Assembly: GCA_965231105.1 (NCBI GenBank)
Contig: OZ246417.1
Coordinates: forward strand, 384,908-448,907
Reading direction: 5' to 3'
Length of the DNA: 64,000 nucleotides
Source: an uncultured Candidatus Saccharibacteria bacterium
Lineage (GTDB): Bacteria; Patescibacteriota; Saccharimonadia; Saccharimonadales; JACDBH01
The translations under genes were made by a program, and so were the position numbers. Below, in pieces: positions 1,363 through 64,000 of the stretch. A model generated the notes under the pieces. That model saw nothing but the letters and a program-made list of their open reading frames with translations. It had not been told where the DNA came from and did no database searches. Each line of letters begins with the position of its first letter. The stretch's first letter is position 1.

Positions 1363-1368
1363 GGCTAC

Positions 1369-12226: not shown

Positions 12227-12303
12227 ACTAACGAACTCCTTACATCACGTAGCTGCTGACTATTATACTGTAGCAGCAGGCCTTGCTTCAAATCTACTCG
12301 TGC

Positions 12304-21899: not shown

Positions 21900-21935
21900 T
21901 GAGCTTAGTATAACAGGAATAACCCTGTCTTAACC

Positions 21936-47854: not shown

Positions 47855-49915
47855 ATGGAAAAAGAGTATGGGTTTGTCCGTCGGCACTGGAAGTTCTTTG
47901 GTGGACTCAGTCTTGTTGCCGGCAGCGTGGGGGCTGGCGTTGCCTATCTTAACCATGAACTACACAGCGCTGAAGGATTAGGGCCTTTGCCGCCAGAACT
48001 AACTGAAGGAACGGTTGGGCAAGAATCCTACATATGTTTTAGCGAAGTGCCTAATTGTGATGGTTCAACTGCACTGGCTGTTTTATCAAGTGGCGGCAAC
48101 ATGGTACCGCGGCCACTCGATCAAATCGATGACGATCTTGAGCATGCCGTTGTTGCCGTCGAAGATCAACGCTTCTTTGAACATGACGGCGTTGATAACC
48201 CAAGTATTGTTCGCGCTATCCTTGCAAACGGCTGGGCCTCAATTAAAGACAGAAGCCCCACAATCAGCCAAGGTGCGTCGACTATAGAAATGCAGCTGGC
48301 TCGCAATCTCTTTCTAGGCGATCGCCCTACTAATGACTTTTCTCGTAAAACCTGGGAAGCAGAACAGGCACTAAAATTAAACCGTGATTATACAAAACCG
48401 CAGATCTTAGAAAAGTATTTAAATGTCGTGAACTACGGTCGGGGTGCATACAGTGCCGAAACAGCATCGCTAATGTATTTCGGCAAACCGGCCAGTGACT
48501 TAACGTTTGTTGAAGCAGCAACGCTCGCCGCAACCGTACAAAGTCCCGATAGCTACGATGGCAGCAGTGATCCTAACAAAGACGTAAATCAGAGAGCTGC
48601 CTTAGAAAGTCGTCGTAATGAAGTTATCGATAATATGGCCGAACAAGGCTATATAACAGCTGAAGAATACGATGCATTTAAGAATGGCACGAACCCCCAG
48701 GTCGAACTTGATACGTATGTGCTGCCCTACCAAACCTATCCGATTAGCTTTTCGATCGACTACGCGAAAGCGAATGAAATTGGTGCTCGACACTATCTCG
48801 ACATGCTTTTAAGTGAGGTGCGAGAACGTTCAGGATACAGCGAGGTTGACCTGACAAAAAACCTTCGCATTAATACGACTTTAAGTTTAGAAGTCCAGAC
48901 TAATACACATGATGCCATTCAAAATGGCACGTATACACGAGATGGCAGACAAATTGCTGCCGTTGTACTTCGTCAGGACGGTAGCATTGCCGCACTCTAT
49001 GGCGGTGATTATCAGACACTTCAAGTTAATCTCGCAACCACTCCTGTTGTTACTGGCTCGGGCGATAAGCCCTGGGCCTATGTGTCACAATTTGAATCAG
49101 GTGCTATTAACTTAGATTCTACGTTTCCAGATCCACCAGCTTTTACCTGGGAAGGTGGCGATAACGGCAAGGACTGGGTGGTTCGAAGTGGTAATTATTG
49201 CGCCTCCGATGCTTCGTGCACAGTGCGTGAAGCGGTAGCAAAGTCATCGAACATGGTGATACTGCAGGCCATGGAAAATGCTGGGCAACCTGGTTTAGAC
49301 CGGATGGATCAGCTCATGGATGCATTTGGTATACCAAGTGAAACACCGCCCACACCCGCAATCATCCTCGGTTCGCGCGAAGCTACCCTCTTGGATCGTA
49401 CGGCTGGTATGAACGGGCTACTTGCAAACAGCGGAAAGTCCGTACCGCATCGATTGCTTAATAGTATTTGTGCGGATGAAAATGGTGGTGGTATCGACCC
49501 CGCAATTACCAGTCCCGTATGTGCAGATAGCGATGAACAGCTCGCGGTAAAGTTCGATTATGCCTCTCCTCAGTGGGGCGCAGCTGCTCCTCAGCAAGTT
49601 ATTGCACCAGAAATTGCCGAAGCTGTTATTGAAGCATTACGTGGCCCAATCAGAAACGGTACTGCTTCAGGTAACTTAGGTGATTTTCCTACCGATGCAG
49701 CCGGTAAAACCGGAACGCATGATAATAATGTTATGGCAGCCTTCATCGGCTCTGCATGTTTCCGAGACGGCAACATGACCATCGGCATATTGGAACGATA
49801 CCCAGACCGTCTCGCATCGTTAGGCGACGGCGAAACAGGCGGGAAAGTACCTGCTCAGATTTTTAGAGCTATTGGCCTACCACTTGTCGGTGATATGTGT
49901 TCGCTAAACGGTTAG
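47855..49915 (+). CDS. class A penicillin-binding protein (GT51 transglycosylase + transpeptidase)
   Basis: 686 aa with N-terminal TM. GT51 motifs AVVAVEDQRFFEHDGVD and GASTIEMQLARN. Transpeptidase motifs SGDK, SSN and KTGT. Confidence 0.9.
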   Translation: MEKEYGFVRRHWKFFGGLSLVAGSVGAGVAYLNHELHSAEGLGPLPPELTEGTVGQESYICFSEVPNCDGSTALAVLSSGGNMVPRPLDQIDDDLEHAVVAVEDQRFFEHDGVDNPSIVRAILANGWASIKDRSPTISQGASTIEMQLARNLFLGDRPTNDFSRKTWEAEQALKLNRDYTKPQILEKYLNVVNYGRGAYSAETASLMYFGKPASDLTFVEAATLAATVQSPDSYDGSSDPNKDVNQRAALESRRNEVIDNMAEQGYITAEEYDAFKNGTNPQVELDTYVLPYQTYPISFSIDYAKANEIGARHYLDMLLSEVRERSGYSEVDLTKNLRINTTLSLEVQTNTHDAIQNGTYTRDGRQIAAVVLRQDGSIAALYGGDYQTLQVNLATTPVVTGSGDKPWAYVSQFESGAINLDSTFPDPPAFTWEGGDNGKDWVVRSGNYCASDASCTVREAVAKSSNMVILQAMENAGQPGLDRMDQLMDAFGIPSETPPTPAIILGSREATLLDRTAGMNGLLANSGKSVPHRLLNSICADENGGGIDPAITSPVCADSDEQLAVKFDYASPQWGAAAPQQVIAPEIAEAVIEALRGPIRNGTASGNLGDFPTDAAGKTGTHDNNVMAAFIGSACFRDGNMTIGILERYPDRLASLGDGETGGKVPAQIFRAIGLPLVGDMCSLNG

Positions 49916-51879
49916 TCTTCAGAGGAACCGGTTTCAATGGCGAGAGTTTCTTCACCAGTGCCAAGGGCTACAGTATTTTGAACGGCAACATTCAGACCCT
50001 TGAGCGCTTCGAGAATCTGCTCATTTCGCTCACGAAGGTCACTAGCGCTGGTGCCTGCTACAAGCTCAACCAATTGGGTAGTAAAGTCCGTAACACGTCG
50101 CTGCTGTGACTGAATTTGATCGATAGCGGCACGTCGTTCCCGGACGTCATTCACCACAAGTTTATGTCCCTCACGTAATGGATCGCGCGGATCGGCAAAG
50201 GCTCTATTGTCGCCCCTTTGAATCTTGTCATGGGCCCAGGAAAAACCAGTTGGCGTAAGATGCCAGGCATTAACAGCAAACTCAATCACATTGTCTTCTG
50301 CCATCACTGGTAATTCACGGGTATTTCGAATCGTGAATGGTAGGTCACTATTCCGATGCACCATAGTCTTTGATTCGTATCCAGGCACGAGTGGGTGATG
50401 AACAAATACGAGATAGCCACCTTCCGCTGAAGGATCAACGCTTTCTGCATCACTGGTAGTAATGAGGGCAACAAATGCTCCATGGCCAAAGCCTTCAACA
50501 TTCACAATGTTGCCGCTGTTCACGCCACCGGCATATTTAATAAGGGCATCAATTGCATCAGGTTTACCAGTTTTCTCCAAGGGAATATAAATACCGAATT
50601 CTGATTTATTCTTTTTAAAGTAGTCGCTTTCAGGAATTCGAAGAGCCATAACGAGCTCGTCAAAGTCGTGCTCTGCTAATTCTTTGTCCTTGTGATCAGG
50701 ATGGCGATGCTCTACCGTGCCATCAGGCAATCTTCGAATATTGGTAAAGAACTTCTCATGCGCACTTGCCGAACTGCGCCTCGCAATATTTCTGCCTGCC
50801 TCAGCGATGAGGTCCCACGCGTCATCATTCGTGCACATATCTAATCTGATTGATCGATGGGATGAGAACGGACGTCGCTTTCGTTCATTACTATCAGGTT
50901 CGTAGCCAGAAATCTGCATGAGCTCCCGTCTTAGTTCATCACTTGCACCAGGCACTCTTCCTTCGATCAGATCGACGACAAGCCGTTTGCCTGAGCCCTC
51001 GGCAGTTTCAGCCGTTGCAAAGAGATTAAGATCATCGATATTCCCAAAACTTATCTGACCGTTCGCATGTGCATGCGCACGCTTGGTAACCATACCTGCG
51101 AACTCTCTTCCGAAGTCCATGAGAAGATCGGCCTCGTTAAAAACCGAAATAGATTCAAGTTCTGAGGACACAGTTCTGATAATTCCTGATTTCTTTTCTT
51201 CGAATAATAGGTCAAGTCTGGCACGTTCAATTTCTGCCGCTCGTAGCCTGTCCTGTTCGCGCTGAGCTTTTGCTTGTCGTTCCGCAAGCATACGCTGCAC
51301 TTCTCCTTCTGAAGGAGGGGCAAACGAAATAGGCTCTACTGAGGGTACTGGCACAGTTTCTACTGCTGATGAAACATACACCGGAGGGAATCCATTCGTG
51401 TCTGTAAAGCCAGGAGTATGCCGATCATCATCAAAAGCTTCTGTATCAGCCCCAAAATCATCACCATCTTCAGGCTGATCATCAAAGAGCACCGGAGACT
51501 GATCTTCTATAAGAGATGTTGATTCAGGGATATCATCAGCTGGCTCTTCAACGCCTTCTCTATCTGATTCGAGTTGCATAAGATGATCTCTGCCATTGCT
51601 GAACGCCCCTCGAGCGCGCTCCATAAAGCCTCGTCTTGGTGCAGCAATTTGCGCGTCTATGACATCGGTATGAGGTTCTGCATCCGGCTGAGTTATTTGC
51701 GGCACGTAACCCTCATCAAAGGTTACATCTACCATTGAGCTTGGTTCGATATCTAATTCTAAGTGCTGACCCTCTTCCCATGATCGTGCGAGTGAGTTGC
51801 CTGATTCTTGGCCATTTGATCCCGACTGCAGCGAGCGCCGCTCATCCCACCTATGTATTTGGCCGTTTTGTTCAGGCAT
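49912..51879 (-). CDS. orphan A: 655-aa cytoplasmic protein with acidic disordered N-terminus and coiled-coil
   Basis: The start was set at the ATG preceded by AGAGGAG (7-nt spacer) and by the TTGACA-17-TATAAC promoter. There is no hydrophobic span and no family recognised. About 200 aa are D/E/P-rich, followed by RMLAERQAKAQREQDRLRAAEIERARL. Confidence 0.75.
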   Translation of the reverse strand: MPEQNGQIHRWDERRSLQSGSNGQESGNSLARSWEEGQHLELDIEPSSMVDVTFDEGYVPQITQPDAEPHTDVIDAQIAAPRRGFMERARGAFSNGRDHLMQLESDREGVEEPADDIPESTSLIEDQSPVLFDDQPEDGDDFGADTEAFDDDRHTPGFTDTNGFPPVYVSSAVETVPVPSVEPISFAPPSEGEVQRMLAERQAKAQREQDRLRAAEIERARLDLLFEEKKSGIIRTVSSELESISVFNEADLLMDFGREFAGMVTKRAHAHANGQISFGNIDDLNLFATAETAEGSGKRLVVDLIEGRVPGASDELRRELMQISGYEPDSNERKRRPFSSHRSIRLDMCTNDDAWDLIAEAGRNIARRSSASAHEKFFTNIRRLPDGTVEHRHPDHKDKELAEHDFDELVMALRIPESDYFKKNKSEFGIYIPLEKTGKPDAIDALIKYAGGVNSGNIVNVEGFGHGAFVALITTSDAESVDPSAEGGYLVFVHHPLVPGYESKTMVHRNSDLPFTIRNTRELPVMAEDNVIEFAVNAWHLTPTGFSWAHDKIQRGDNRAFADPRDPLREGHKLVVNDVRERRAAIDQIQSQQRRVTDFTTQLVELVAGTSASDLRERNEQILEALKGLNVAVQNTVALGTGEETLAIETGSSED

Positions 51880-51906
51880 AGTCAAACTCCTCTTGTACGT
51901 AAGACC

Positions 51907-51957
51907 GTTATATTCTTTATTTGTAGTTTTGTCAACAAACGTAATAATATTTACAAT
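51907..51957. promoter_or_regulatory. back-to-back divergent promoters with overlapping -35 boxes
   Basis: The minus strand reads TTGACA (51930-51935)-17 nt-TATAAC (51907-51912), driving orphan A. The plus strand reads TTGTCA (51929-51934)-17 nt-TACAAT (51952-51957), driving orphan B with a leader of about 80 nt. Confidence 0.5.
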
Positions 51958-52045
51958 TAACTTGCAATAGCAATGTGGATGTGTTTCCCTAATTACATAA
52001 GAGCGGTAGCTTATATTTAGTGTTGGCGAAATTCGGAGGAGCGTC

Positions 52046-54283
52046 ATGAAACGCGGAGCGGAAAGTAGTATCGGTAACGGAAGCTTAGTCGCTGACATTG
52101 TGCCCGAACTCGACACGAGCGAACACAGAAGAGGGCTATCGGTAACCTATGATCCTGCTGCGGTGACTATCTCACAGCAAGTAATGAGCGCCGCCGAGTT
52201 AGTACAGCAGCCAAACATATTCCACCCCAGCCGCTTCCCCGGAGGAGCCTGTCTCACTGACCCTAACTTTGCAGTTGAGCCATTTCACCGCGTTCAGAAC
52301 AATAATATTGGCGGTGTGATAAAGGACCCTGCAAATGCATCAGGTCGAGTTTACACTGCCGCTATTGGTTATCCTCTCTCTAAGGTTGGCGGCGGTTCCG
52401 TTGCGCAACATCAGTTTTCTATATTCGATAATGCCTATATGCCTGGCATCTTAGGTATGCAGGCAGAAGTAGAGCAGGCTAAGAGCGGAGGCCGTTACTC
52501 GACATATTACCCGCTGGTGAGTCGGCTTGAAAGAAATAGAGAGACCGGTGATATCACCGAGCATCCTTCCCGACGAAATGTCTACTTTGTCTGTACTCAG
52601 GAAGATGAAGATTGGGTTGTTCGAAGTATTATAGATGGCTCCGAACCACATCCTATTGATGGTTACCAGCAAGTCGCCCTACCAATGGAAGACGGCACTG
52701 TTCTTTACCAAGAAGATACCTTCTTAGACTATCTTTCGTACACGCTTGGCTATCAAGTTCAGGCCGATGGCGAAAATGCGACACCCGCCCAACGAACAGG
52801 CATGAAAGCATACGAGGATTTGCTACGTCTGTCCCGGTCTGAACGGGCTGCGCACCAACGACTCTTATACCATTTCATTGGTAATCTCAGTGCCAAAATT
52901 CTGAATGTAGATGCTGAAATCAGAAACATCGAGCCACGAGCAAAGAAACTCGTTAACGATATTTGGCCGAAGCTGAAGATTGCTGATTTTGCAGCCTCAA
53001 GCCTTCAGCACACCTTTCTTCGAGCTGCTGAGTTACTTCAAGAACTTGATCTTTATTCTCAAAAGGCAGACAAGACACTTACCCGTAAGGGCCGAGCGGA
53101 TTTAGCAGAACGCCGGTCTACTATATTCCAGCGAGTCATTGCTGCGACCGCATTCATGGAACTGATGTCTAAGTCACAGTCGGGTATGCAGCATGTGAGT
53201 GATGAGCGAACAAGAATCGCCCAGGATGGATTTGATATTAGTCAGGAAGTAGGCCAAGATGTGCGCTTTACCGCCGTTTCCTTAGATGAAACAGATCAAT
53301 ATATTCATCGCCAAGCTCAACTGCAATTACGAAAACTCAGTCGACGCGGACACAGTACCCCACACTACCAACTCCTTGAAAATCTTGTTGGTTATGTATC
53401 CGCCGATGCTGATGAAGCACGAGTCATAATTAAGGCACTTGAAGGCAACCGACTTGCTACGTACCGAGGCTTATCCCATACCGGTCGCAGTACTGGCGAG
53501 ACAGATGAGATCAGGAATAAGGGCGAAGCTATGCCTAATGGTGGTTATGCGCACTACCCATTTGAAATTGCAACCTCACTTACGCATCCGCTGGAGCAAA
53601 ATCCACGCATTCCATCAGGTCTCTTGATGCAGGGAGTTGTAGCCCGCTTCGATGTCATTACTCCAGAAAAAGACCCAAATAAACCACCGGCAACCCGGTG
53701 TCTTGTTTTATCCGGCAAAGACATTCCATGGTGCGTTACCCAGGCAGTTATTGAACGTGCTAATTTCAATCCTCGCTCACGCCCACGATCTGCCGAACAT
53801 GTTTTGGATGGTCGTTTTGGAATCCGAGCACACATGGAATCCGCACGACCACAATATTGGCGCGCCGGGAGACACACAGCCAGCGGTGTTAAGATGTGGC
53901 CGCGCTTACTCATGAACGGCTCTGCTTTTGCGGTGGCGCGACATATGGATGCCGATCCAAAAGATCCAAGAAGAAATGTTGAGCATGTGTATGAAGATTT
54001 TGGACGAATTCCCGGCATTCCCGTAAGAGCACTCACGAGGCGTACCGGACAGTTAAGGCCTCGCGTACCAGACCAACCCCTCGCGCAGCCTGTCTACGAA
54101 AAAGGTACAGTTCCTATCGGTACAGAGACCAGAAACCCCCATGATCCAACCGCACTTATTGATGTCCGTTTTGCAGATAATGCAGTATATGTGAGCGGCG
54201 AGATGAGTACAGGGAGTGTAAAAACAAAAGGGCAGGCTCCTGTCGGCTTCCTCAGAACCCGCAGTGCGAAAGGTAGACGCTAA
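52046..54283 (+). CDS. orphan B: 745-aa cytoplasmic protein, no recognisable domain
   Basis: A GGAGGAG SD lies 4 nt upstream. There is no hydrophobic span, the C-terminal third is Arg/Pro-rich, and there is no Walker A. Confidence 0.8.
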   Translation: MKRGAESSIGNGSLVADIVPELDTSEHRRGLSVTYDPAAVTISQQVMSAAELVQQPNIFHPSRFPGGACLTDPNFAVEPFHRVQNNNIGGVIKDPANASGRVYTAAIGYPLSKVGGGSVAQHQFSIFDNAYMPGILGMQAEVEQAKSGGRYSTYYPLVSRLERNRETGDITEHPSRRNVYFVCTQEDEDWVVRSIIDGSEPHPIDGYQQVALPMEDGTVLYQEDTFLDYLSYTLGYQVQADGENATPAQRTGMKAYEDLLRLSRSERAAHQRLLYHFIGNLSAKILNVDAEIRNIEPRAKKLVNDIWPKLKIADFAASSLQHTFLRAAELLQELDLYSQKADKTLTRKGRADLAERRSTIFQRVIAATAFMELMSKSQSGMQHVSDERTRIAQDGFDISQEVGQDVRFTAVSLDETDQYIHRQAQLQLRKLSRRGHSTPHYQLLENLVGYVSADADEARVIIKALEGNRLATYRGLSHTGRSTGETDEIRNKGEAMPNGGYAHYPFEIATSLTHPLEQNPRIPSGLLMQGVVARFDVITPEKDPNKPPATRCLVLSGKDIPWCVTQAVIERANFNPRSRPRSAEHVLDGRFGIRAHMESARPQYWRAGRHTASGVKMWPRLLMNGSAFAVARHMDADPKDPRRNVEHVYEDFGRIPGIPVRALTRRTGQLRPRVPDQPLAQPVYEKGTVPIGTETRNPHDPTALIDVRFADNAVYVSGEMSTGSVKTKGQAPVGFLRTRSAKGRR

Positions 54284-55182
54284 TGCCCACCATACCTCGT
54301 CCTGGCGAAACATCCCCAAGCTCTCGCCCCGAAGAGGGGGAGCAGCCTCTTCCGCTAATTACGGATTTTAACTGCGAGTTAGATCGTGGCTACTCCCGGG
54401 CTGTGTTGCCCCCGGGTTCCGCAGTGCGAACACCTGAAATACATAAAACAATGTATCATCAGGCATCATCACCTGGTGAGTCTGTTGAAAGCAACAACTT
54501 TATAGAAGTAGTCCCGCTTGTCTTTCAAAATGAAGAAGCTCGTGAACAGTCAAAGGTTGTCAACGAGGGATTCAATGCTACTACGTACAATGCCGATGCA
54601 ACCGAACGCCTATTCAAACCCGCAGGACAACTAAGAATACTTCGTTCCGATATCCTACCAGAGGGCCCAGTGGTAGTTGTTGCGTCATTACTCGCGCGTC
54701 CTGAGGAATATGGCGACCAAAAAATTGCAGACGTACTTAATTGGCTACCTCGTGTCGTTCTTGTTACGGATGAAGGGGTAGATACAGAAGGTATTCGTCA
54801 TCCTATCAACCTCGCTGAGATGGTTGAGATACATGAAGATGCTCCAACAGAAATACCCTTTACTATAACTCCACCAGATGAGGACGATCAGTTTCAGGAT
54901 CGGCTTAATACGATACTCTGGCAGCCGGATCCGGAGGGAGTAGCCCGACCAAAAGCAGGTCGCATCGTTATAGGCAAGCGCGCATTGGATGAAGAAGGAC
55001 GAGTAGACTACCCTTCTATTAGTGCAACCGTTGAATGTTTTGATGAAGATGATCTGCTGGCAGGCTTAATTGTCCGTACCAGTGGAAGACTGCGTAGAAC
55101 GCGAGTCCAACGACCTGAAGCCCAAGCTCAAGAGGAGGATCGTGTTCTTAGATTGATAAATTTTAATTCTGAAATAGCATAG
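54283..55182 (+). CDS. orphan C: 299-aa cytoplasmic acidic protein
   Basis: The start overlaps the stop of B (TAATG). No hydrophobic span and no family recognised. Confidence 0.75.
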   Translation: MPTIPRPGETSPSSRPEEGEQPLPLITDFNCELDRGYSRAVLPPGSAVRTPEIHKTMYHQASSPGESVESNNFIEVVPLVFQNEEAREQSKVVNEGFNATTYNADATERLFKPAGQLRILRSDILPEGPVVVVASLLARPEEYGDQKIADVLNWLPRVVLVTDEGVDTEGIRHPINLAEMVEIHEDAPTEIPFTITPPDEDDQFQDRLNTILWQPDPEGVARPKAGRIVIGKRALDEEGRVDYPSISATVECFDEDDLLAGLIVRTSGRLRRTRVQRPEAQAQEEDRVLRLINFNSEIA

Positions 55183-55191
55183 GAGATTAGT

Positions 55192-55992
55192 ATGAGACGA
55201 GGAGCAAGCACAATGAACCGGGGCGGATGGGATGAGGATCATATTCGAACTGCGCCCCGCCAGTTAAGAGGACCAGCTCGCAGTAATCCACTCAGTAATT
55301 TACGAGATCGCTTTAACGGTATTCATATGCCGGATTGGAGTAACAGAAAAAAGATTGGGGCCGGTATTTTATTGTTTGCACTATGGCAGGGTGCTACAGC
55401 AGATAATTCTCCGGTACCAAATAAATACCTGCCCAGCCCTGGTGAAACAGCAGTAGGCTTATTAAACGGAACAGAATGGGTCATTCAGAAAATAGACAAC
55501 GGTATTGATAGCATTGGATCAAAAGATGAGTCATCGAGTGAGGTACCGGTAGTAACGGTTCCGACCCCTACCGCTTCATCCGCTCCTGAAGCAACAACCG
55601 CAAGCACTCCTGCAGCGACTGGATCTACCCTTGCACCGTTGCCAACTACTGCTACTACTGCACCTTCAACGGTTGGGTCGGTAGAAACTGTCGCCCCTAC
55701 TACAGTCGCACCTGTAGGCGAGGCCTTACCTTCACCTATGCAGTACTCTGCTGCAGCAGGTTCGGTTGTATGTCGCGGCAATATCGTTTCCGTTACCATC
55801 ACCCCAGATGGTGGCGCTCCATTTTCACAAATGCGCAATGCGACCGGCGAACCATGGGATGCAGGTGTAGCCCCTCATTCTGACGATAACCAACTGTTTG
55901 CTGAAGTACTAGTATCAAACGGCTACCCACAAGAACCGGATGGTGCGTATACCCTACTTGTTCGTAACGGCTGTACTGGTCTCGAACAGTAA
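55192..55992 (+). CDS. orphan D: N-terminally anchored protein with T/A/P linker and Cys-bracketed ectodomain (paralog of K)
   Basis: GGAG SD. TM span IGAGILLFALWQGA, a linker of about 70 aa rich in T/A/P/S, and a C-terminal domain VVCRGNIVSVTITPDG...LLVRNGC. Confidence 0.75.
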   Translation: MRRGASTMNRGGWDEDHIRTAPRQLRGPARSNPLSNLRDRFNGIHMPDWSNRKKIGAGILLFALWQGATADNSPVPNKYLPSPGETAVGLLNGTEWVIQKIDNGIDSIGSKDESSSEVPVVTVPTPTASSAPEATTASTPAATGSTLAPLPTTATTAPSTVGSVETVAPTTVAPVGEALPSPMQYSAAAGSVVCRGNIVSVTITPDGGAPFSQMRNATGEPWDAGVAPHSDDNQLFAEVLVSNGYPQEPDGAYTLLVRNGCTGLEQ

Positions 55993-56005
55993 AACTTCTT
56001 CAAAC

Positions 56006-58885
56006 TTACTGCGAAAGAACGTGATTACAGGTGTAGTAGGCTTCTGAGAACGCCTCTAAACCGTGTGCTCTTTTGCCATTTACGACTTGGCGAGCAGCCT
56101 TCATATCATTATTATTTAATGCATCTCTAATGCGGCCCTCATTCTCCTTAAGATAAACTGCTAAGATTCGAGCGGCAGTAGGCGGATCATTCGCTCTCTC
56201 CGGGTGGTTAAGAAGATCCTCACCTAAGATTTCACCGTAATGTACATAGTTAGTCCTCCAGGTTATCTGAACTAAGCCACGCCCGTGATAAATATGGCCA
56301 GTTTCAGGGTCTGGCTCACCATATTCCTTGCCCTTACCCTTGCCAATCTCATCAATCGGGGCAAAGCCGCTTGTTTCAACTCTTATCGTTGCAAATGCGT
56401 AACAAGCCATCTGCTCATCTGCAATGCCAAATTCATTAAGCGCATTTAAGACAAGTGGTGTATAGGCCTGGATGTTTTCGATTGGTGCGTTGGGAAGCAT
56501 GTTTTGAATAAGTTCGTCAGTAAAGACGTCACGAAGCGGAGCCGTAACTTCTGCTGGGGTCGGTTCAGGTGTTTCGACGGGCGGTACAGTCTCAGGTGGC
56601 GCCTCCTCTACAGGCTGTTCTTCCACATTTTCCGGTTCCTCTGGTTCTGGATCTGTTGCCACTTCCTCTTCCTCTGTTTCATTGGCCTTATTCTTATCCT
56701 TTTCCCTATCCTTGTCACGTGTTTCTTCTTGGATATCAGTAATGGTTGGCAAGGTTTCCTCTTCGTCTGTAAGGGTAATCTGCACATCCAGCAATGTTGG
56801 CACTACTAAGGGAGGTGCTACCTCGTTCGTACCTTCATCTTCAACCACTGGCGGTACTGCCGGTTCCGCTATGGGCGCATCGACACCATTAATAGGCCGC
56901 TGATCATTGAGCGTTATTTCCGCTTCCGGCAAACTAAATGGTCCTTGCTGGCCGCCGTCCATGGAGATATGCCAGTGGGCTGTATCACTTGGAACATCAC
57001 CGTGATCTGCCTGGAGTAAAATGTTTGGACGTCTATATCCCATCGAGTCGAGGTACTCATTTCCTCGTTCCACCAACCCTGCATCTCCGGAGACAATGTG
57101 ATGGATATATGCCGAACCGTCTTCGTTGCGCAAACCGAGCAACCATACAAAGAGTTCTTGGCGTGCTTCAGGATTTGCAAGCAAGCCAACATCTATATCA
57201 CCGCCATGGCGATGCTCTTTGTGACGAGACAGCGCATCCATTAACACAAGTTCACCCATGTCTGGATAGCGAGCACTCATCTCATGTACCTTATCGGCTA
57301 TCATGACGGCAACAACCGCGGTGTCCAAAGACGCAAGTCGTTCACGGTCGGTTGTGTGATTGGCAAATGTATAAAGTCCACCGATACTGTCAGGAATACG
57401 ATAGTAGCCTTCAGGAATACCATCACCTGCAGGCGCTTTATAAAAGCCTGCTCCACCGTCAATAATGAATTGTCGTAAAGCCTTATCATCCACGACGTTC
57501 TGGTCGTTCACGCTATAAAAAGCCCTAAAGTCAATTGCTGCCTCTGTTTCAGGCGCTTCTATTACGGCAGCTTCTGGAGTTCGGGCAGGCGTAGAAGAAA
57601 CTTCTTCTATTACAATTGGCACCGTTTCTATAACAATTTCCGGCTGCGAAGGCAGTGTTGCTTTATCTTCAATAATTGCCTCTAATCGTGGCGCTTCGAT
57701 GCTAATAACCGTGGGCTGAATAACTGGTAACTGTGGCACTACTTCCGGTACTGGCAGAGGGGGCGTTACCGCTGGTGCGAGGGGCTGGATAGTAATGTCC
57801 AGGAGTGTAGGGGCCGGCATGCGAGCGAGTACTTCGTTATGAAGATCTCTTTTGCCGGCATATTTCTGAAACACCTCATCTTCAATCGACAGTGCAGCAG
57901 GCGAAATAATAGGCGTCACAATAGGACTCTCATCCTCATCGATAAGGACCGGTAGTTCAGGTGAGACGATTTCAGGAGTAGTAGGTTCTATAGGCTCTAC
58001 CGGAAGGGGTGTCGTAGAGGGATAGAGTTCGGCGTGTTTCTTATGGACCAGTGGGGTTAACAGCTGGATATCATAATCTGTTAACTGGTCATAACCGTGG
58101 CTACTTGGATGCACAGAGTCACCCATCTCAATGTTACCGCGTGCATGATCTCGATATGGCAGCACTTCCACTTCAATACCCTCTGCACGTCCAGCGTCCC
58201 TAACCTGATATAGAATCTGATTACGCACATCAGCATCCGCATACTTTGAATCACCAAATATTTCGCCCAAAACAATAAGAGCCGGCTTGCCGTCAGAAGC
58301 ACCGATTTCATGAGCATGCCGTATATTCCGCAGCGCATCGCTAAAAATATCGCTTGATGGATTCGTACCAAGATAAATAGCAATAACGTCGCTCTTCGCA
58401 ATAGCATCACGGTTATTATCGAGCGCCCGTATACCATCGTCTGTTTTTGTACATGCGCGTGACAGCGCATCGGCATCGCAGGCAGCCAACACAAGCGGCC
58501 TACTGCCCTTCACATCAGCAGCGAGTGTCATGATACCGGCTTCATTGAGCTTCTCAACGATGGTTCCCGCACCTTTTCTACCAACGCTAATCGAATCTCC
58601 TACAAGCGATATAGTGGCAACAGGACTTGGCTCCATGGGCGGAGCTTGAGCTAACTCAATTGCTGAAGCTCGCTTAACGCTAAAAACAAGTGGGCCCGCA
58701 ACAGCAGCCACTCCTAGTCCTAGGCCGACCGCCACTGCTGCTATTGATTTAGCGCTCTGCTCTTTTTCAGGAGCTATAAACTCGGGCGGAACAATTTGTT
58801 CAATCCTATAAGCATCAGCTAATTCTTCTAAATACGCGCTTTGCCGGGGTACTATATTTCCCTGTGGCAGCGCGAGTCTGGTCAT
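56006..58885 (-). CDS. orphan-cluster E: anchored tri-domain cell-wall hydrolase (SGNH esterase + LAS-type metallopeptidase + GH19-like muramidase/chitinase)
   Basis: 959 aa with TM IAAVAVGLGLGVAAVAGPLVF. SGNH blocks LVGDSISVG, YLGTNPS and GDSVHPSSHGY. LAS pattern SRHKEHRHGGDIDVG...DTAHWHISM. GH19-like RVETSGF...YHGRGLVQITWRTNY. P/V/E-rich linkers join the domains. Confidence 0.8.
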   Translation of the reverse strand: MTRLALPQGNIVPRQSAYLEELADAYRIEQIVPPEFIAPEKEQSAKSIAAVAVGLGLGVAAVAGPLVFSVKRASAIELAQAPPMEPSPVATISLVGDSISVGRKGAGTIVEKLNEAGIMTLAADVKGSRPLVLAACDADALSRACTKTDDGIRALDNNRDAIAKSDVIAIYLGTNPSSDIFSDALRNIRHAHEIGASDGKPALIVLGEIFGDSKYADADVRNQILYQVRDAGRAEGIEVEVLPYRDHARGNIEMGDSVHPSSHGYDQLTDYDIQLLTPLVHKKHAELYPSTTPLPVEPIEPTTPEIVSPELPVLIDEDESPIVTPIISPAALSIEDEVFQKYAGKRDLHNEVLARMPAPTLLDITIQPLAPAVTPPLPVPEVVPQLPVIQPTVISIEAPRLEAIIEDKATLPSQPEIVIETVPIVIEEVSSTPARTPEAAVIEAPETEAAIDFRAFYSVNDQNVVDDKALRQFIIDGGAGFYKAPAGDGIPEGYYRIPDSIGGLYTFANHTTDRERLASLDTAVVAVMIADKVHEMSARYPDMGELVLMDALSRHKEHRHGGDIDVGLLANPEARQELFVWLLGLRNEDGSAYIHHIVSGDAGLVERGNEYLDSMGYRRPNILLQADHGDVPSDTAHWHISMDGGQQGPFSLPEAEITLNDQRPINGVDAPIAEPAVPPVVEDEGTNEVAPPLVVPTLLDVQITLTDEEETLPTITDIQEETRDKDREKDKNKANETEEEEVATDPEPEEPENVEEQPVEEAPPETVPPVETPEPTPAEVTAPLRDVFTDELIQNMLPNAPIENIQAYTPLVLNALNEFGIADEQMACYAFATIRVETSGFAPIDEIGKGKGKEYGEPDPETGHIYHGRGLVQITWRTNYVHYGEILGEDLLNHPERANDPPTAARILAVYLKENEGRIRDALNNNDMKAARQVVNGKRAHGLEAFSEAYYTCNHVLSQ

Positions 58886-59652
58886 GATGCAGGTGCCCTA
58901 CAAATCAGATAACCATCATTGCCGTTCGTGAAATCAATACGACGATAATTGCCATCTTCATTTACGGCTTCAGTAGGATTTCGCAAGAATTCAGCAGGAA
59001 AAAAGTTATTCTCAAATTGGTTCGCACGACTTGCTACAGTTCCCCGGAGTATTGATAGGTCGTTACTGCATGCCGTAAAAGCACTTGTTCGTCCTTCAGG
59101 ACTTAAATCCGGGTCATTCAGATAGTTATAGAGTGCCTCAAGGGTAAAGTCTTCTGCCGCAAGACCATTCGCATGTTGTGCGGTCTGCTCAAATTTAGCA
59201 GTATCTACAACTAACTTTACCGTTACTTCCAATGCACAAACACTCTGGACAGATTTCACAACCGTATCTGTATTAAGCTCATAGCGAAATACATCCTGCA
59301 CGCCTCCACCACTAGCTCCCGGTAATACTATTGAAGACGGCGCATTCAAGGTAGGGTCACGACTATCCGTTTGTTCTACGCCGGTATCAAATGTAGCACA
59401 CGCGGTTGCCGTGCTACGGGTAGCCTCTCGGATTTGTATCGCGGCAACTGCTGCTACACCTGCAAGTACCGCAGCAGCACCGAGCTTCCCCACGGTAGCC
59501 CACTTTCTATCAGCCCTATTACCCATACCTATATAGATAGGGTGTTTTTCTTGATCGCCAGCCGGCCTAATAACTGGTGGCTTTTTTCGTATCTCACTGA
59601 GCCGTTTTTCGGTCTGTCGATATTGTGCCGCGGGTGATACTCTTTTGCTCAT
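58882..59652 (-). CDS. orphan F: N-terminally anchored ectoprotein
   Basis: 256 aa with a basic cytoplasmic head and the TM span LGAAAVLAGVAAVAAI. The ectodomain has 4 Cys. The stop/start overlaps E (ATGA). Confidence 0.7.
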   Translation of the reverse strand: MSKRVSPAAQYRQTEKRLSEIRKKPPVIRPAGDQEKHPIYIGMGNRADRKWATVGKLGAAAVLAGVAAVAAIQIREATRSTATACATFDTGVEQTDSRDPTLNAPSSIVLPGASGGGVQDVFRYELNTDTVVKSVQSVCALEVTVKLVVDTAKFEQTAQHANGLAAEDFTLEALYNYLNDPDLSPEGRTSAFTACSNDLSILRGTVASRANQFENNFFPAEFLRNPTEAVNEDGNYRRIDFTNGNDGYLICRAPAS

Positions 59653-59732
59653 ATTATATCTTGTCGTATCCCAGTTTTACTACTATTTAAACCTGTTAGA
59701 ACGAAACTGTCAAAGTTGTTTTCCTGCTTTTA

Positions 59733-60359
59733 CTAAAATGGATAATCAGAGGGCGGAATATACCCGATCTCATCACAATGCGAGGGCTTGGTGTCGTCTA
59801 AAACTATTTGCGTTAAATAGCGAATTGTCGTGTTCGCTTGTGAGTCGAGTTCTTCGATTCGATGCTGTAATAAATTGCGGAGAGCCGAGGTAGTTTCGAT
59901 GCATACATCACGCGATACACCTTCATAGGTGGCTGGAAGATCAACAGAAGCATGACCTTCTTCTGGAGGATAAATAGCTTCCGCACGAATCCATGTTGTG
60001 GAACCAGCCTGCATGAGTGCAACTGAGGCTAAATCAATGCACAATGCTCGCTTCGAAACTCCCTGCCCAACGAGCACTACTTCTGAATTATCTGATCCAT
60101 CCGGACAAAGATGCGCTTCCGGATCACTTTTTAAACGAGCCGACATTGAGCTCGTTTGGGCTGTTGTCGCCAGAGGCAGTCCGGAAGTATCAAAAGGAAC
60201 TTCTTCAAAGGCTTCAGGATGAAGGGTAAAGGGTAATTGCCACTCTTCTGCCCCTCGGGGATTTCGATAATCGACATAGCCCGATCTTTCCCCTACAAAA
60301 CCGACCCCAGCTACTACTGCAGTCAGTCCCATGAGCGCACCTTTTGTACTCTTCTGCAT
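59733..60359 (-). CDS. orphan G: N-terminally anchored ectoprotein
   Basis: 208 aa with anchor ALMGLTAVVAGVGFVGERSG and an ectodomain with 4 Cys. No family recognised. Confidence 0.7.
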   Translation of the reverse strand: MQKSTKGALMGLTAVVAGVGFVGERSGYVDYRNPRGAEEWQLPFTLHPEAFEEVPFDTSGLPLATTAQTSSMSARLKSDPEAHLCPDGSDNSEVVLVGQGVSKRALCIDLASVALMQAGSTTWIRAEAIYPPEEGHASVDLPATYEGVSRDVCIETTSALRNLLQHRIEELDSQANTTIRYLTQIVLDDTKPSHCDEIGYIPPSDYPF

Positions 60360-60369
60360 AATTGCCTAT

Positions 60370-61362
60370 CTAAATACCGCCACAGGCAGTTACTTCAACC
60401 ATCTTGTCGCTAAACTTAACTTTTATATCTTTATGATTGCCATCACTGTCACCAATAATCGTCTCTTCTAGTGACTTATACTCGTCAATCTTGGCCGCAT
60501 ATTCATCCGCATAATGTTGCTGAACTTCAGACTGATCCGCTACTTCAACCGTTACAGGAACGCCTGCAAGCTGTGGCTGCTCAACCATAATTGCGCCGGC
60601 CACAAATTTTGCAATGTTCTCACGTACACTTGCCATATCAAGGAGTTCGGCAGGACACGCACTTGCAGCCGCCTTACGAATTGCGAGATCTTCGGTGATG
60701 TAATCAAAAGTTTCGGCAACACCGTTATTAACCCGACCGTCCGTATAGCGCTCAATATCATTAACTGTGCCATCAGCACGAGTGGTTGGTACGCGTACCG
60801 CGCAAGGCAGCAGAGCATCGGTATGTGCAACAATCCCTGTTATCTTCAACTGATCGTTTGGATCCTCGTGTAGGTATTCGAGTTCAAATACAGATTGTTT
60901 TTCTTCCTCAGACAGGCTCACATCTACCCCCACTTGAACCTGCTCGTAATCGGTGCCTAGCTTAGCGCAAGGGGTATAGGTCACCACGAACGGCTTGTCT
61001 TTAACAAACCTGGTACCGTCAACATCACCGGCAAAGTCAGTGATACCTTCGGCGTCCCAATCCACTTTGGTGAGGTCACCACTATCAGAGTCTCTGGCAT
61101 ACACCATCTCTACTTCAACTTCACCGAAGGTAAGAAAAATGGACCTATCAACCAGCTTAGCCGAAAGAACTTCAGGACCCTCACCAATCTCAGCCGTCGC
61201 GCCACCATTTCCGAGCCCGAAACATTCCTGTACGACACTTCCACCACCAAAAACTGCACCCGCACAGTCTCCGGGACCAAATCTTTCGGCGGCAAGATAG
61301 CCCAGCCCTGCCACTCCTGCAACTACAGCCATACCTGAGCCTAAAGAAGATTTAAATGCCAT
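60370..61362 (-). CDS. orphan H: N-terminally anchored acidic ectoprotein
   Basis: 330 aa with anchor GSGMAVVAGVAGLGYLAAERFG, similar to that of G, and several Cys. There is a 10-nt gap to G. Confidence 0.7.
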   Translation of the reverse strand: MAFKSSLGSGMAVVAGVAGLGYLAAERFGPGDCAGAVFGGGSVVQECFGLGNGGATAEIGEGPEVLSAKLVDRSIFLTFGEVEVEMVYARDSDSGDLTKVDWDAEGITDFAGDVDGTRFVKDKPFVVTYTPCAKLGTDYEQVQVGVDVSLSEEEKQSVFELEYLHEDPNDQLKITGIVAHTDALLPCAVRVPTTRADGTVNDIERYTDGRVNNGVAETFDYITEDLAIRKAAASACPAELLDMASVRENIAKFVAGAIMVEQPQLAGVPVTVEVADQSEVQQHYADEYAAKIDEYKSLEETIIGDSDGNHKDIKVKFSDKMVEVTACGGI

Positions 61363-61426
61363 AGAATCCTCCGTCTTATGGATATATATTGAACACTTTG
61401 AGTGCTACTGTCAAATATGTCGCGTG

Positions 61427-62110
61427 CTAACCAAGCGCGGGCGTAGCGGGATCGCCATCTCCAAAGGGTGTCTTTAGACACGTTTCAAGATTCCATGGCT
61501 GAGAAAAATCTGCACCAACCGCTTGCTGCAACTGGTCAATAGCATCCCGAGTTTGATTACCTGCAACGCCGTCAACTGCAGCTGTATAGTATCCCTCTTG
61601 CACTAAAAAGGTCTGTAGTTTCTTCACATCATTAATAACAGCTTCAGACCTATCACCCCGTGGAATATTATCTATAATTTCACATTGCCCCGTCGGTGGC
61701 GAAGTCTCTGGACTCGATGATCCCTCACTGGTATTTGTTGGTTCAACTTCAGTAGGAGTAGAAGGAAGCGAAGGCGTAGCCTGCTGCTCTCCTGCGCGCC
61801 GATCGACTGGCAGCGAAAGCGCCATCATGGCCAACCCACCGGCAAGCACTCCCCATGCTGCTTGTCTACCATTCTTAATGCCGTTGCCAACAAAATCACT
61901 CCGTTTATATAAATATGCTTGAGTGGTTGCGCCACCAGCCGCGAGCGTTGCGCCACCCCATAATAACGAGTCCTTAAAGACCGGATTTAAACCGAGCCCA
62001 TACTTAGCAAAAGCGACCCCGGCCGCTACAGTACCGGCGGCGCCAACTGCAGCAGCAATGCCGTTTTTGGTACGTCGCTCTCTATCACTCGCAGAAATTT
62101 CCATCGACAT
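61427..62110 (-). CDS. orphan I: Gly-rich 3-TM protein with C-terminal peptidoglycan-binding (PG_binding_1-like) domain
   Basis: 227 aa with three G/A-rich hydrophobic spans and an S/T/P linker. VKKLQTFLVQEGYYTAAVDGVAGNQTRDAIDQLQQAVG matches the PG-binding repeat. Confidence 0.7.
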   Translation of the reverse strand: MSMEISASDRERRTKNGIAAAVGAAGTVAAGVAFAKYGLGLNPVFKDSLLWGGATLAAGGATTQAYLYKRSDFVGNGIKNGRQAAWGVLAGGLAMMALSLPVDRRAGEQQATPSLPSTPTEVEPTNTSEGSSSPETSPPTGQCEIIDNIPRGDRSEAVINDVKKLQTFLVQEGYYTAAVDGVAGNQTRDAIDQLQQAVGADFSQPWNLETCLKTPFGDGDPATPALG

Positions 62111-62144
62111 AATGATTTCCCTACTTATTCAAAATAATACATAA

Positions 62145-62172
62145 ATCGTAGACCTTTCCTTTTAACTGTCAA
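62145..62172 (-). promoter_or_regulatory. candidate promoter of the I-H-G-F-E operon
   Basis: The minus strand reads TTGACA-16 nt-TACGAT, followed by a 34-nt leader containing AGGGAAA before ATG 62110. Confidence 0.4.
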
Positions 62173-62220
62173 GAATTGTCATTTTTAACAACACAGAAGT
62201 TCCGCCAACCCCTGCTTACT

Positions 62221-62248
62221 TTGACAGGAGTGTATGATTGTGTACTAT
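62221..62248 (+). promoter_or_regulatory. candidate promoter of J-K
   Basis: TTGACA-16 nt-TACTAT. The leader carries a GGAGGT SD before ATG 62273. Confidence 0.45.
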
Positions 62249-62272
62249 TATAGTAGATATTGGAGGTACCTA

Positions 62273-63481
62273 ATGCCTAGTAAAAGAGAGGTCGGAGCTT
62301 TAGTTGCGTGTGGGACTCTTACTTTAGGTATGGGTGCCGCTCTCCTCTTCCCCGATCAGACTGAGAGCGCAGGAGGTAGTGCCACCGAGGCGGTCATCGA
62401 TATCTTCCAGCCAAAAGAAGAAGTATCCACCACTGCAGCAGCTGCGTGCTATGAAATTAGCACTGTTGATACCCGACTAAAGATTGGCGCTCTTATTATT
62501 ACGCTGGCCGATGTTACAGAGCCTGGTCAGATGGACGTGTTGCAACAAACCATGCAGGAAACTGCCGTCAGCGGTTTTGCTACCCTCAATCTTGAGGATA
62601 CAGTCCACTACAAAGGCCAGCCTACTCCCATAGCAACAGCCACCACGAGCTTAATCACAGAAGTAGAAGCAGCCAATGGCGTTAATGTCACATTCGCGCT
62701 CGATGAAGAGGGCGGGATGGTACAACGATCGAAGAATCTTATGGGCTTTACCCGCTTACCTTCCGCACGCGATCAGGCTGCGTTACCGCCCGCAGAAATT
62801 AGTAGTATGTTTACTGAGCACGGACAAAAGCTCCGAACCTTAGGTGTTGATGTTGTATTTGGTCCCGTCGCTGATTCAGGTCATAACGATCCAATCGGAA
62901 GTCGCGCATTTGCTGCAACCCCTGAATCAGTTGTTGGTCCGGCTCGCGCAGTTATTGAAGGACTCCATGCAGCGGGTATCGATGCCACTATCAAGCACTA
63001 CCCAGACCACGGCAATGCTACCGGTGATACACATGTCGTAGCAGCAAAAACACCACCCTTATCAGAACTTGAATCAAACGGGCTTCCTGCCTTTACGGCA
63101 CTTTTTCCTGAGACGGATATGGTAATGGTTGCTCATACCAGTACCGAAGGACTTACCGCGCCAAATGAGCCTGCTAGTCTAAGCCCTGCAGTATATTCCC
63201 GCCTCCGAGCTGATGGTTTTACGGGCGTTGCCATAACAGACGGACTGGGTATGGACGCGATTCAAGCCTATGTAGGGGCTCCCGATGAGGCAACAGCAGA
63301 GGCCAAGGCAGCAGTTATAGCATTACAAAGTGGTGCCGATATGGTCATTGTTGATCTCGGAAGCACTCGCGGCGTCGTAAACGCTGTTAGTGCCGCTGTC
63401 GCGAGTAGCGAAATTCCTGCCGCTCGACTTGATGAGGCAGCAAAGAGAGTCCTATCATTAAAAGGGTATCAAATGTGTTAA
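62273..63481 (+). CDS. glycoside hydrolase family 3 (NagZ/YbbD-like beta-N-acetylhexosaminidase), N-terminally anchored or lipoprotein
   Basis: The start was set at the ATG after GGAGGT (MPSKREVGALVACGTLTLGMGAALLF). GH3 motifs LDEEGGMVQR, GVDVVFGPVADS and KHYPDHGNATGDTH. Confidence 0.8.
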   Translation: MPSKREVGALVACGTLTLGMGAALLFPDQTESAGGSATEAVIDIFQPKEEVSTTAAAACYEISTVDTRLKIGALIITLADVTEPGQMDVLQQTMQETAVSGFATLNLEDTVHYKGQPTPIATATTSLITEVEAANGVNVTFALDEEGGMVQRSKNLMGFTRLPSARDQAALPPAEISSMFTEHGQKLRTLGVDVVFGPVADSGHNDPIGSRAFAATPESVVGPARAVIEGLHAAGIDATIKHYPDHGNATGDTHVVAAKTPPLSELESNGLPAFTALFPETDMVMVAHTSTEGLTAPNEPASLSPAVYSRLRADGFTGVAITDGLGMDAIQAYVGAPDEATAEAKAAVIALQSGADMVIVDLGSTRGVVNAVSAAVASSEIPAARLDEAAKRVLSLKGYQMC

Positions 63482-63538
63482 AGTTGAATTTATAGCAAAT
63501 GACTTGCATAACATTCATAAGGAGAGTACGGTAATACT

Positions 63539-64000
63539 ATGGAACGAAGTACGGGAATAGCTTCAGGACTTATTTTTGGTGGCGCAATGTTTATTGCGGG
63601 TATGGTTGTAGAGAGAAATGTTATTAATGATGAGCCAGGTAGTGCTGCACCGGCACCCGAAACTACCGTAGCAGGTGTTTTACCTACAACCGGTGGTGCC
63701 GAAACTACAGTTCCACCCACCACTACCGCACCGGGGGCTCCTATTACTTACCCGCTTTCAAAAGTAGTATGTTATGGGCCAGAAGTGCCCGTAACGGTTA
63801 CCGGCGAGGATGTTATTACCGTAGGAGGCGTCGCAACACACAGCTTCCTAAAGGCTGCAAATCGTACCACAGGTAAAACCTTCTATACACAGATAGCTGC
63901 CCCACCAGCCAACAATGCCGATGGCTTTATGGCAGACCTTTATAATCGAAATGGTTTACCCGTTCCCGCGAGCTTTGATGATTTACCAGGTGTCACATTG
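63539..64000 (+). CDS. orphan K (5' partial, runs off the window; absent from the ORF track): anchored protein, paralog of D
   Basis: My translation: MERSTGIASGLIFGGAMFIAGMVVERNVINDEPGSAAPAPETTVAGVLPTTGGAETTVPPTTTAPGAPITYPLSKVVCYGPEVPVTVTGEDVITVGG... The frame is open for 154 codons to the window edge. An AAGGAGAG SD lies upstream. Confidence 0.65.
   Translation, partial: MERSTGIASGLIFGGAMFIAGMVVERNVINDEPGSAAPAPETTVAGVLPTTGGAETTVPPTTTAPGAPITYPLSKVVCYGPEVPVTVTGEDVITVGGVATHSFLKAANRTTGKTFYTQIAAPPANNADGFMADLYNRNGLPVPASFDDLPGVTL

Follow-up and report, generated by a model that had tools for sequence, protein, structure and literature searches.

Peptidoglycan synthases and hydrolases are known to form partnerships, such as that of mycobacterial RipA with PonA1 and that of Bacillus CwlO with FtsEX. 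Sec signals and type II signal anchors of low hydrophobicity are targeted in a manner that depends on SecA rather than on the signal recognition particle (SRP), and GxxxG or other small-xxx-small motifs (GAS-right, glycine-zipper) serve as association motifs of transmembrane (TM) helices, for example in glycophorin A. Membrane-anchored multi-domain wall hydrolases, namely PrgK, TcpG and TraG, are found in the conjugation systems of Gram-positive bacteria (PMC12102498). Here, we analyzed a stretch of 64,000 nucleotides of contig OZ246417.1 (the window) from an uncultured Candidatus Saccharibacteria bacterium, in which five consecutive minus-strand open reading frames (ORFs), in the order I-H-G-F-E and spanning 56006-62110, constitute a rare, lineage-restricted and conserved extracytoplasmic cell-wall module. 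We favor the explanation that this is a membrane-tethered peptidoglycan-remodelling module whose anchors belong to a compositional class of export or anchor segments, and we put the probability of this at roughly 0.55.

Like Sec signals and signal anchors, the hydrophobic segments of the cluster are N-terminal, positively flanked, uncharged stretches of 16-24 residues; their composition is conserved while their sequence is not, and they are carried by exported wall enzymes. Unlike the usual Sec signals, they are very rich in Gly (A+G fraction about 0.5), and two of them follow long N-terminal tails. With GxxxG helices they share the richness in Gly and Ala, and many pairs of small residues at i,i+4 arise here merely from composition; spacing enrichment, a single small face and positional conservation, however, are all absent. 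As in the RipA-PonA1 and CwlO-FtsEX pairs, the genes link a lytic enzyme with a class A penicillin-binding protein (PBP) and with membrane partners that might position or control it. In contrast to those pairs, F, G and H are unrelated to known regulators, there is no ABC-type FtsEX, and an interaction is suggested by gene neighbourhood only.

The genes of the cluster (from the ORF list) and their anchors (those of H, G, F and E located by a hydrophobicity scan) are the following.

61427-62110, minus strand: gene I, a 227-residue membrane protein with three hydrophobic segments and a C-terminal PG_binding_1 domain
62006-62062, minus strand: first Gly/Ala-rich hydrophobic segment of I, GIAAAVGAAGTVAAGVAFA (A+G 0.65)
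60370-61362, minus strand: gene H, a 330-residue orphan with an N-terminal hydrophobic segment and an ectodomain with six conserved Cys
61288-61350, minus strand: hydrophobic segment of H (residues 5-25), SSLGSGMAVVAGVAGLGYLAA
59733-60359, minus strand: gene G, a 208-residue orphan with an N-terminal hydrophobic segment and a four-Cys ectodomain
60291-60341, minus strand: hydrophobic segment of G (residues 7-23), GALMGLTAVVAGVGFVG
58882-59652, minus strand: gene F, a 256-residue orphan with an N-terminal tail of about 56 residues, one hydrophobic segment and a four-Cys ectodomain
59437-59484, minus strand: hydrophobic segment of F (residues 57-72), LGAAAVLAGVAAVAAI
56006-58885, minus strand: gene E, a 959-residue membrane-tethered multi-domain wall hydrolase whose start overlaps the stop of F by 4 nucleotides
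58676-58747, minus strand: hydrophobic segment of E (residues 47-70), after a 46-residue N-terminal tail

A sequence-only reading of this DNA had described these genes as a five-gene minus-strand operon at 58882-62110 whose products share a Gly/Ala-rich A-V-x-A-G-V anchor, and had proposed that anchors of common ancestry pack together in the membrane. The ORFs are real, but the range given for them omits E. Overall, its observation was partly confirmed and its interpretation partly supported.

The anchors form a compositional class

All ORFs of the window were subjected to a Kyte-Doolittle scan, and eight cluster segments were compared with the 46 other hydrophobic segments. The eight comprise those of the five proteins (I gives two) together with those of a GH3 enzyme of the window, whose segment is of the same Gly/Ala-rich kind, and of the following protein.

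47855-49915, plus strand: class A PBP (PBP1a; Pfam Transgly and Transpeptidase) with the Gly/Ala-rich N-terminal segment FFGGLSLVAGSVGAGVA

The A+G fraction was 0.52 in the cluster segments and 0.21 in the others (Mann-Whitney p 1.4e-5), whereas large hydrophobic residues amounted to 0.25 and 0.47, respectively (p 2e-4). Against 12 other single-pass N-terminal segments, A+G was 0.52 versus 0.24 (p 8e-4). The four most A/G-rich hydrophobic segments of the window are those of I, E, F and H, and the value for the first segment of I is the highest among all hydrophobic 17-mers. The soluble parts of the proteins barely differ in A+G (0.17 in the cluster proteins versus 0.15 in the others), and this difference of 0.02 rules out a general amino-acid or GC bias as the cause. 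In 37 orthologue anchors from the H, G, I, F, E and PBP1a families, A+G averaged 0.42 and large hydrophobics 0.25. The five strings quoted in the sequence-only reading were correct, and the anchors are indeed unusual for the window. Their composition is conserved across orthologues; within the 64 kb, it is not the generic composition of all TM anchors. With a simplified Hessa scale, sums of +2.2 to +5.0 kcal/mol were obtained for the cluster segments and a median of +0.4 for the other segments; on this scale, the cluster segments would be marginal for autonomous membrane insertion.

The composition is not specific to the five products, as had been supposed. Besides PBP1a and the GH3 enzyme, an L,D-transpeptidase of the window (29393-30376, plus strand; YkuD and a partial PG_binding_1) carries at its N-terminus the segment MKTRAVIAGTVFGLAALAPAVAEA, which is Gly/Ala-rich in the same way as the cluster anchors. 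In L004, a distant syntenic contig (related loci are referred to by number), such segments are present on PBP1a, on an M23 peptidase and on several bitopic proteins without assignment. The polytopic DUF1295 protein of L004 has ordinary helices rich in Leu, Ile and Phe, and the other bitopic proteins of the window (LemA, an SBP_bac_5 protein and several without assignment) have Leu/Ile-rich anchors. The like composition on other wall enzymes, both in the window and in L004, therefore marks a class of exported wall-acting proteins and not the five products alone. The anchor is a weakly hydrophobic, Gly/Ala/Val-rich N-terminal export or signal-anchor segment of wall-acting exoproteins.

In the same locus L004, a 419-residue protein (20902-22161, minus strand) starts with MSFRDIAKPVGMAVAGVAGEAF, which includes GMAVAGVAG and is nearly the anchor string of H, GMAVVAGVAG. 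The protein is unrelated to H and comes from another genome, so that this near-identity illustrates how such strings converge.

The likeness is neither a conserved packing motif nor a trace of common ancestry

The A-V-x-A-G-V core is exact in F (AVLAGV) and in G and H (AVVAGV), but only approximate in I (TVAAGV) and E (AAVAGP). When residues were shuffled within the anchors, a shared 6-mer arose in 7% of trials (p 0.07), and four anchors fell within 5/6 of one hexamer in 0.5% of trials (p 0.005; post hoc). The core did not hold up in the orthologue alignment: AVVAGVAG of H is replaced by LTVTGVGA in P0002, an H orthologue with 56% identity (BLASTP). The anchors of H and 17 homologues are Gly/Ala/Val-rich throughout but free in sequence, and across the 18 there is no conserved column except for a frequent Gly near the end. 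The ER-x-G that had been noted after the anchor is present in both G and H, and is retained in the closest H orthologue only. A looser version, in which Glu comes after an aromatic residue where the segment ends on the outer side, recurs and includes PBP1a.

The helices had been proposed to associate through GxxxG- or AxxxG-like small residues. In 31 cluster and orthologue anchors, each compared with 1000 shuffles, no excess of small-xxx-small (i,i+4) was found (mean z -0.12, p 0.35). The helical moment of Gly, Ala and Ser at 100 degrees revealed no one-sided face in these 31 anchors; if anything, the small residues are spread around the helix (mean z -0.36). Small-residue periodicity gave no robust peak at any angle between 60 and 180 degrees. 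With no excess in spacing, no helical face and no conserved positions, the proposed packing motif finds no support.

The same is true of common ancestry. Pairwise hhalign comparisons of the F, G and H families gave probabilities below 2%, and BLASTP among the three proteins found the anchor alone (E 0.56); both methods led us to reject paralogy of F, G and H. The likeness of the anchors is mostly a compositional effect, neither a conserved packing motif nor a trace of common ancestry.

Export signals and topology

The n-regions of H, G, F and I have a net charge of +1 to +9 and are followed by the uncharged stretches of 16-24 residues, while that of E is ambiguous, with a net charge of -2. Owing to the Ala and Gly content, the (-3,-1) rule yields 4-8 candidate signal peptidase I sites per segment. 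On reading the sequences, we rejected a twin-arginine (Tat) signal for want of a consistent twin-arginine, a pilin-type (class III) signal since no G|F-x-x-x-E occurs, and a lipoprotein signal since there is no lipobox Cys. The passengers are extracytoplasmic (PG_binding_1 in I, GH19 in E). Moreover, the number of Cys is even in all five cluster proteins and in every exported protein of the region, and these even counts, conserved in the H and G orthologues, support an extracytoplasmic location.

From these data we infer that the cluster segments belong to a common class of Sec-type signals or signal anchors with low hydrophobicity. The data agree best with the alternative offered in the sequence-only reading, a shared insertion or processing step. 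In such a scheme, the cluster proteins would all pass through one Sec-type step on account of their low hydrophobicity. E and F, with their long N-terminal tails, and I, with its three segments, would remain anchored with the N-terminus inside and the C-terminus outside; G and H would be either anchored or released after cleavage. Next to the class A PBP, the products would then probably work jointly on peptidoglycan, E being the lytic enzyme and I a wall-binding partner.

The modular hydrolase E and the PG-binding protein I

The domains of E and I are as follows.

57986-58618, minus strand: SGNH/GDSL-like domain of E (residues about 90-300; GDS 96-98, GTN 173-175, DSVH 256-259)
56936-57544, minus strand: middle domain of E (residues 448-650), LAS-type zinc peptidase-like (HRHGGDID 558-565, HWH 637-639; motifs only)
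56015-56587, minus strand: GH19/endolysin-like domain of E (residues 767-957; PHROG 181, PDB 8hne)
61514-61633, minus strand: PG_binding_1 domain of I (residues 160-199; Pfam PF01471, E 4e-8)

E had been called a tri-domain hydrolase. Its GH19 domain is backed by profiles: the C-terminal residues, about 190 in number, match the PHROG 181 endolysin (E 3.8e-27), and the module aligns with the GH19 protein PDB 8hne (E 4.6e-8), with VETSG placed on HETSG. With Pfam PF00182 it scored 23.7 bits, narrowly under the cut-off of 25.5. The SGNH domain is plausible. Its blocks GDS, GTN and DSVH are kept in three E orthologues; the region of E itself has no Pfam match and its PDB profile search was not significant, and the L004 orthologue gave weak GDSL matches (PF00657 with E 0.002, under the cut-off, and PF13472 with E 0.006). 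The LAS assignment of the middle domain is conjectural, with no Pfam or PDB sequence match. The modules are separated by two Pro/acid-rich linkers of about 155 and 130 residues.

Orthologues of E were found in L004 (E 7e-29, 29% identical) and L010 (E 4e-10), and the sequence of the 46-residue N-terminal tail is conserved in the orthologues. The L004 orthologue (10001-12535, plus strand) has the N-terminal tail, the anchor and the SGNH-like domain in common with E of the window. The LAS-like middle domain is missing from it, and the lytic module is swapped, with Phage_lysozyme2 in L004 and LAS-like plus GH19 modules in the window. The C-terminal module of E thus resembles GH19 endolysins and chitinases in its GH19 and PHROG endolysin alignment, which includes the catalytic-region motif, and the L004 orthologue resembles phage tail lysozymes in carrying Phage_lysozyme2. 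Unlike in GH19 endolysins, the module is cellular and membrane-tethered, ends a 959-residue protein with long linkers, and has no prophage context.

The PG-binding repeat reported at the C-terminus of I was corroborated by the PF01471 match, which at 33.8 bits exceeds the curated cut-off of 23. The hydrophobic segments of I lie at residues 17-35 and 84-103, with a weak Gly/Ala-rich one at about residues 48-65. Orthologues of I occur in L003, L010 and L004 (BLASTP E 5e-12 to 5e-4), that of L003 having a weak PG_binding_1 match (E 0.0019). A PG-binding membrane protein is encoded near the membrane-tethered hydrolase, as had been pointed out. Residues 49-132 of I show a weak NCBIfam similarity (E 0.004, far under the cut-off) to PspM_Rv2743c, a membrane protein from the phage-shock system with which actinobacteria respond to envelope stress.

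F, G and H are orphan families

In Pfam, NCBIfam and PHROG scans, F, G and H had no match, in line with the statement that their ectodomains have no recognisable family. The claim of four or more Cys in each also proved right (4 in F, 4 in G and 6 in H), and these Cys are kept in the orthologues of H and G. A word-index search of 5.8 billion proteins returned a single homologue of H, and HMMER found 18 relatives among 1.84 billion cluster representatives. The relatives are about 330-380 residues long, except for two fragments (P0009, 113 residues; P0019, 272 residues). Four Cys and two Gly are invariant in the family and two further Cys nearly so; three of the four Cys of G are invariant in a six-sequence alignment. 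Scans of genome contigs and of metagenomes for relatives of H returned only one locus, which was already known, and the H-family profile had no match among PDB sequences.

An AlphaFold2 model of H, built from 18 sequences, reached a predicted local distance difference test (pLDDT) score of 76.7 and a predicted TM-score (pTM) of 0.71. The model has a beta-rich part (residues 54-209) followed by a helical part (213-296), and residues 1-47 are of low confidence. Foldseek searches with the model gave best E values of 0.6 in the PDB and 0.04 in BFVD, at TM-scores of about 0.1, and no fold neighbour. The model of G, from a three-sequence alignment, was of low confidence (pLDDT 41). For F there is no sequence-detectable orthologue; positional equivalents of the same layout were seen in L004, L010, L015 and L016.

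Homologues of G lie directly beside H in L003, L005, L010, L012, L014, L015 and L016/L017 (BLASTP E 1e-25 to 5e-4). H and G are neighbours almost without exception (eight loci), which makes them a conserved pair. Homologues of I precede H in L003 and L010. In L010, I, H and G come first; a class A PBP on the opposite strand follows, and after it come an F-like protein and an orthologue of E. In L004, the E orthologue is preceded by the I orthologue and four bitopic Cys-containing proteins, which stand at the positions of F, G and H and have no detectable homology to any of them; downstream follow orthologues of a 266- and a 745-residue protein and PBP1a, as in the window. In three loci, a class A PBP is found beside or inside the cluster. 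In L005, the divergent neighbour of the H-G pair is a polysaccharide deacetylase (712-1506, minus strand; PF01522) with an N-terminal hydrophobic segment, a further wall-modifying neighbour.

Weighing the explanations

The model of the sequence-only reading, in which five small-residue helices, stable only when bundled, pack into a hetero-oligomer that places I beside E, appears unlikely to us. Several observations suit it: the Gly/Ala-rich composition is kept in every cluster family across distant orthologues, the insertion energies are marginal, the genes are tightly linked (10 nucleotides between H and G, the overlap of F and E, and the conserved adjacency), and the anchors are somewhat more alike than expected from composition. 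However, the motif positions are not conserved, neither a small-xxx-small excess nor a one-sided face was found, and the same composition occurs on unlinked wall enzymes, so that the model has lost its main supports, namely motif conservation, common ancestry and specificity. A better candidate, which we entertain tentatively, is that G and H, and perhaps other products, carry ordinary cleavable Sec signal peptides and that the mature proteins, having lost the anchor, are soluble wall or surface proteins. Their n-regions are short and positive, the uncharged stretches of 17-21 residues have a hydrophobicity at the level of signal peptides, and a conserved composition with poorly conserved sequence is typical of signal peptides. 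In addition, the segment of P0002 ends with AAA before ERF, and the L,D-transpeptidase, of the same composition, has the segment AVIAGTVFGLAALAPAV followed by a classical signal-peptidase-like AEA-G end (AVAEA-G). This explanation accounts poorly for the N-terminal tails of E (46 residues, conserved in sequence) and of F (56 residues, conserved in layout only, among positional equivalents), and for the three hydrophobic segments of I. Furthermore, the Y-x-x-x-E at the outer end of the segment in H, P0006, P0008 and PBP1a resembles a membrane-interface feature, and class A PBPs are normally uncleaved.

Two further explanations concern the role of the cluster rather than its anchors. It could be the apparatus with which an epibiotic bacterium of small genome attacks or contacts a host, the linkers of E carrying its lytic domains past the cell's own wall to open that of the host and F, G, H and I giving structural support at the surface. 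The two long Pro/acid-rich linkers would suit this role, as would the set of esterase-like, peptidase-like and GH19 or phage-tail-lysozyme modules, which fits modified peptidoglycan, the swap of the lytic module between orthologues (GH19 here, Phage_lysozyme2 in L004), and the rarity and lineage restriction of the families. The conserved class A PBP neighbourhood points to the cell's own wall, and we regard such an apparatus as rather improbable. The cluster might also supply the membrane components of a type IV secretion or conjugation system of the Gram-positive type, with E as a hole-punching hydrolase similar to PrgK or TcpG and the bitopic proteins as channel parts similar to VirB8. Indeed, E shares with PrgK, TcpG and TraG the N-terminal membrane segment, several lytic modules and a place among small bitopic proteins (and, here, one polytopic protein), and Patescibacterial type IV secretion genes are highly divergent (PMC12102498). 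In contrast to those systems, the cluster has no VirB4 or coupling ATPase and no relaxase, its ORFs lack a Walker A motif, and no ATPase family was matched in Pfam between 47.8 and 64 kb. The modules of E are SGNH-like, LAS-like and GH19, the H model has no VirB8/NTF2-like neighbour in the PDB (none below E 0.6), and the cluster lies on the chromosome and keeps its synteny with PBP1a in distant genomes. A type IV secretion system is largely refuted by the lack of any ATPase, and we give it hardly any credence.

Several points also weigh against the peptidoglycan-remodelling module with compositional anchors that we prefer. The flanking charges of the E anchor do not clearly obey the positive-inside rule, and the (-3,-1) rule is uninformative in segments so rich in Ala and Gly. 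Two of the three domains of E are putative assignments from motifs only, and the L004 proteins that stand in the places of F, G and H are not detectably homologous to them. The functional link to PBP1a is suggested by neighbourhood in three loci only. The five anchors are slightly more alike than their composition predicts (p 0.005, post hoc). Finally, 64 kb were surveyed out of a genome that measures at least 903 kb, so that a genome-wide class is extrapolated from few proteins.

Transcription units and surroundings of the cluster

The spacing is 64 nucleotides between I and H, 10 between H and G and 80 between G and F, with the 4-nucleotide overlap between F and E. The genes are co-directional and close, as an operon would require, but a single operon is not established, as there are promoter-like boxes in two of the gaps. 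TTGACA with an AT-rich -10-like box is found in both the 64-nucleotide (I-H) and the 80-nucleotide (G-F) gap, so that three tandem units (I; H-G; F-E) and one operon are equally plausible. A single terminator-like site was found in the cluster, inside I. A further site and the genes that converge on the cluster are listed here.

62145-62172, minus strand: promoter-like site TTGACA-16-TACGAT upstream of I (consensus scan, 10/12 positions; consensus match only)
52046-55992, plus strand: three convergent genes (ORFs) of 745, 299 and 266 residues, function unassigned

The 745-residue protein corresponds to a 756-residue protein of L004 (E 9e-13) and the 266-residue protein to one of 307 residues (E 6e-6). 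The 745- and 299-residue proteins are without hydrophobic segments. No Pfam, NCBIfam or PHROG match was obtained for the neighbours of 734, 745, 299 and 266 residues (49912-55992), and no PDB sequence match for those of 734 and 745 residues. These four ORFs may belong to the same system as the cluster. With its listed GTG start, the 734-residue ORF (49912-52116, minus strand) overlaps the divergent 745-residue gene (52046-54283, plus strand) by 71 nucleotides; translation probably begins further downstream at an ATG, such as that of the Met ahead of PEQNGQIHRW.

The window, part of a 903-kb contig, is cellular DNA, with nine tRNA genes and the genes for LeuRS, Ddl, a Mur ligase, LigA, UvrC and the class A PBP. 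The small size, a GC content near 45% and the numerous orphan ORFs would fit an organism of the Patescibacteria type. The region 47855-64000, which contains the whole cluster, has a GC content of 0.47-0.49, compared with 0.40-0.47 in most of the window, and its soluble proteins have half the Lys content (0.033 versus 0.067) and more Pro. Between 30400 and 38000, next to tRNA-Phe and tRNA-Gly, GC is lowered to 0.40-0.43 with a strong AT skew of up to 0.18. This segment encodes an 899-residue superfamily 1 (SF1) helicase (31032-33731) and an HNH endonuclease (34666-35472), and it may be the remnant of a mobile element. A 123-residue four-helix membrane protein of the Phage_holin_4_2 family (44655-45026, minus strand; E 4e-23) lies in housekeeping surroundings, adjoining aminopeptidase P and an oligopeptide-binding protein.

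What the cluster may mean for the envelope of this lineage

Wall hydrolases tethered to the membrane, PG-binding partners and signals of low hydrophobicity are all of kinds that are already known. The F, G and H families, the H fold, the 745-residue neighbour and the architecture of the cluster, on the other hand, are undescribed so far. A bolder proposal, which we think unlikely to be correct, is that I-H-G, F-E, the class A PBP and the conserved cytoplasmic 745-residue protein make up an undescribed, lineage-restricted envelope machine. If this were true, peptidoglycan synthesis would be coupled to a long-reach three-module hydrolase, and the subunits, among them an H ectodomain of no known fold, would be joined by the marginally hydrophobic Gly/Ala-rich helices, which would be stable only when assembled.

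If the cluster is a working unit, it would add F, G and H as three new protein families and, possibly, a new means of tethering and controlling a wall hydrolase next to a class A PBP. H would contribute a fold that is confidently predicted and has no known relatives. The source lineage is a poorly known one of small genomes, most of whose envelope biology is uncharacterised. The weakly hydrophobic segments pose the question of whether they are sorting signals, cleaved signals or helices that require a partner, and their richness in Gly and Ala provides a simple sequence handle for the wall-acting exoproteins of this lineage.

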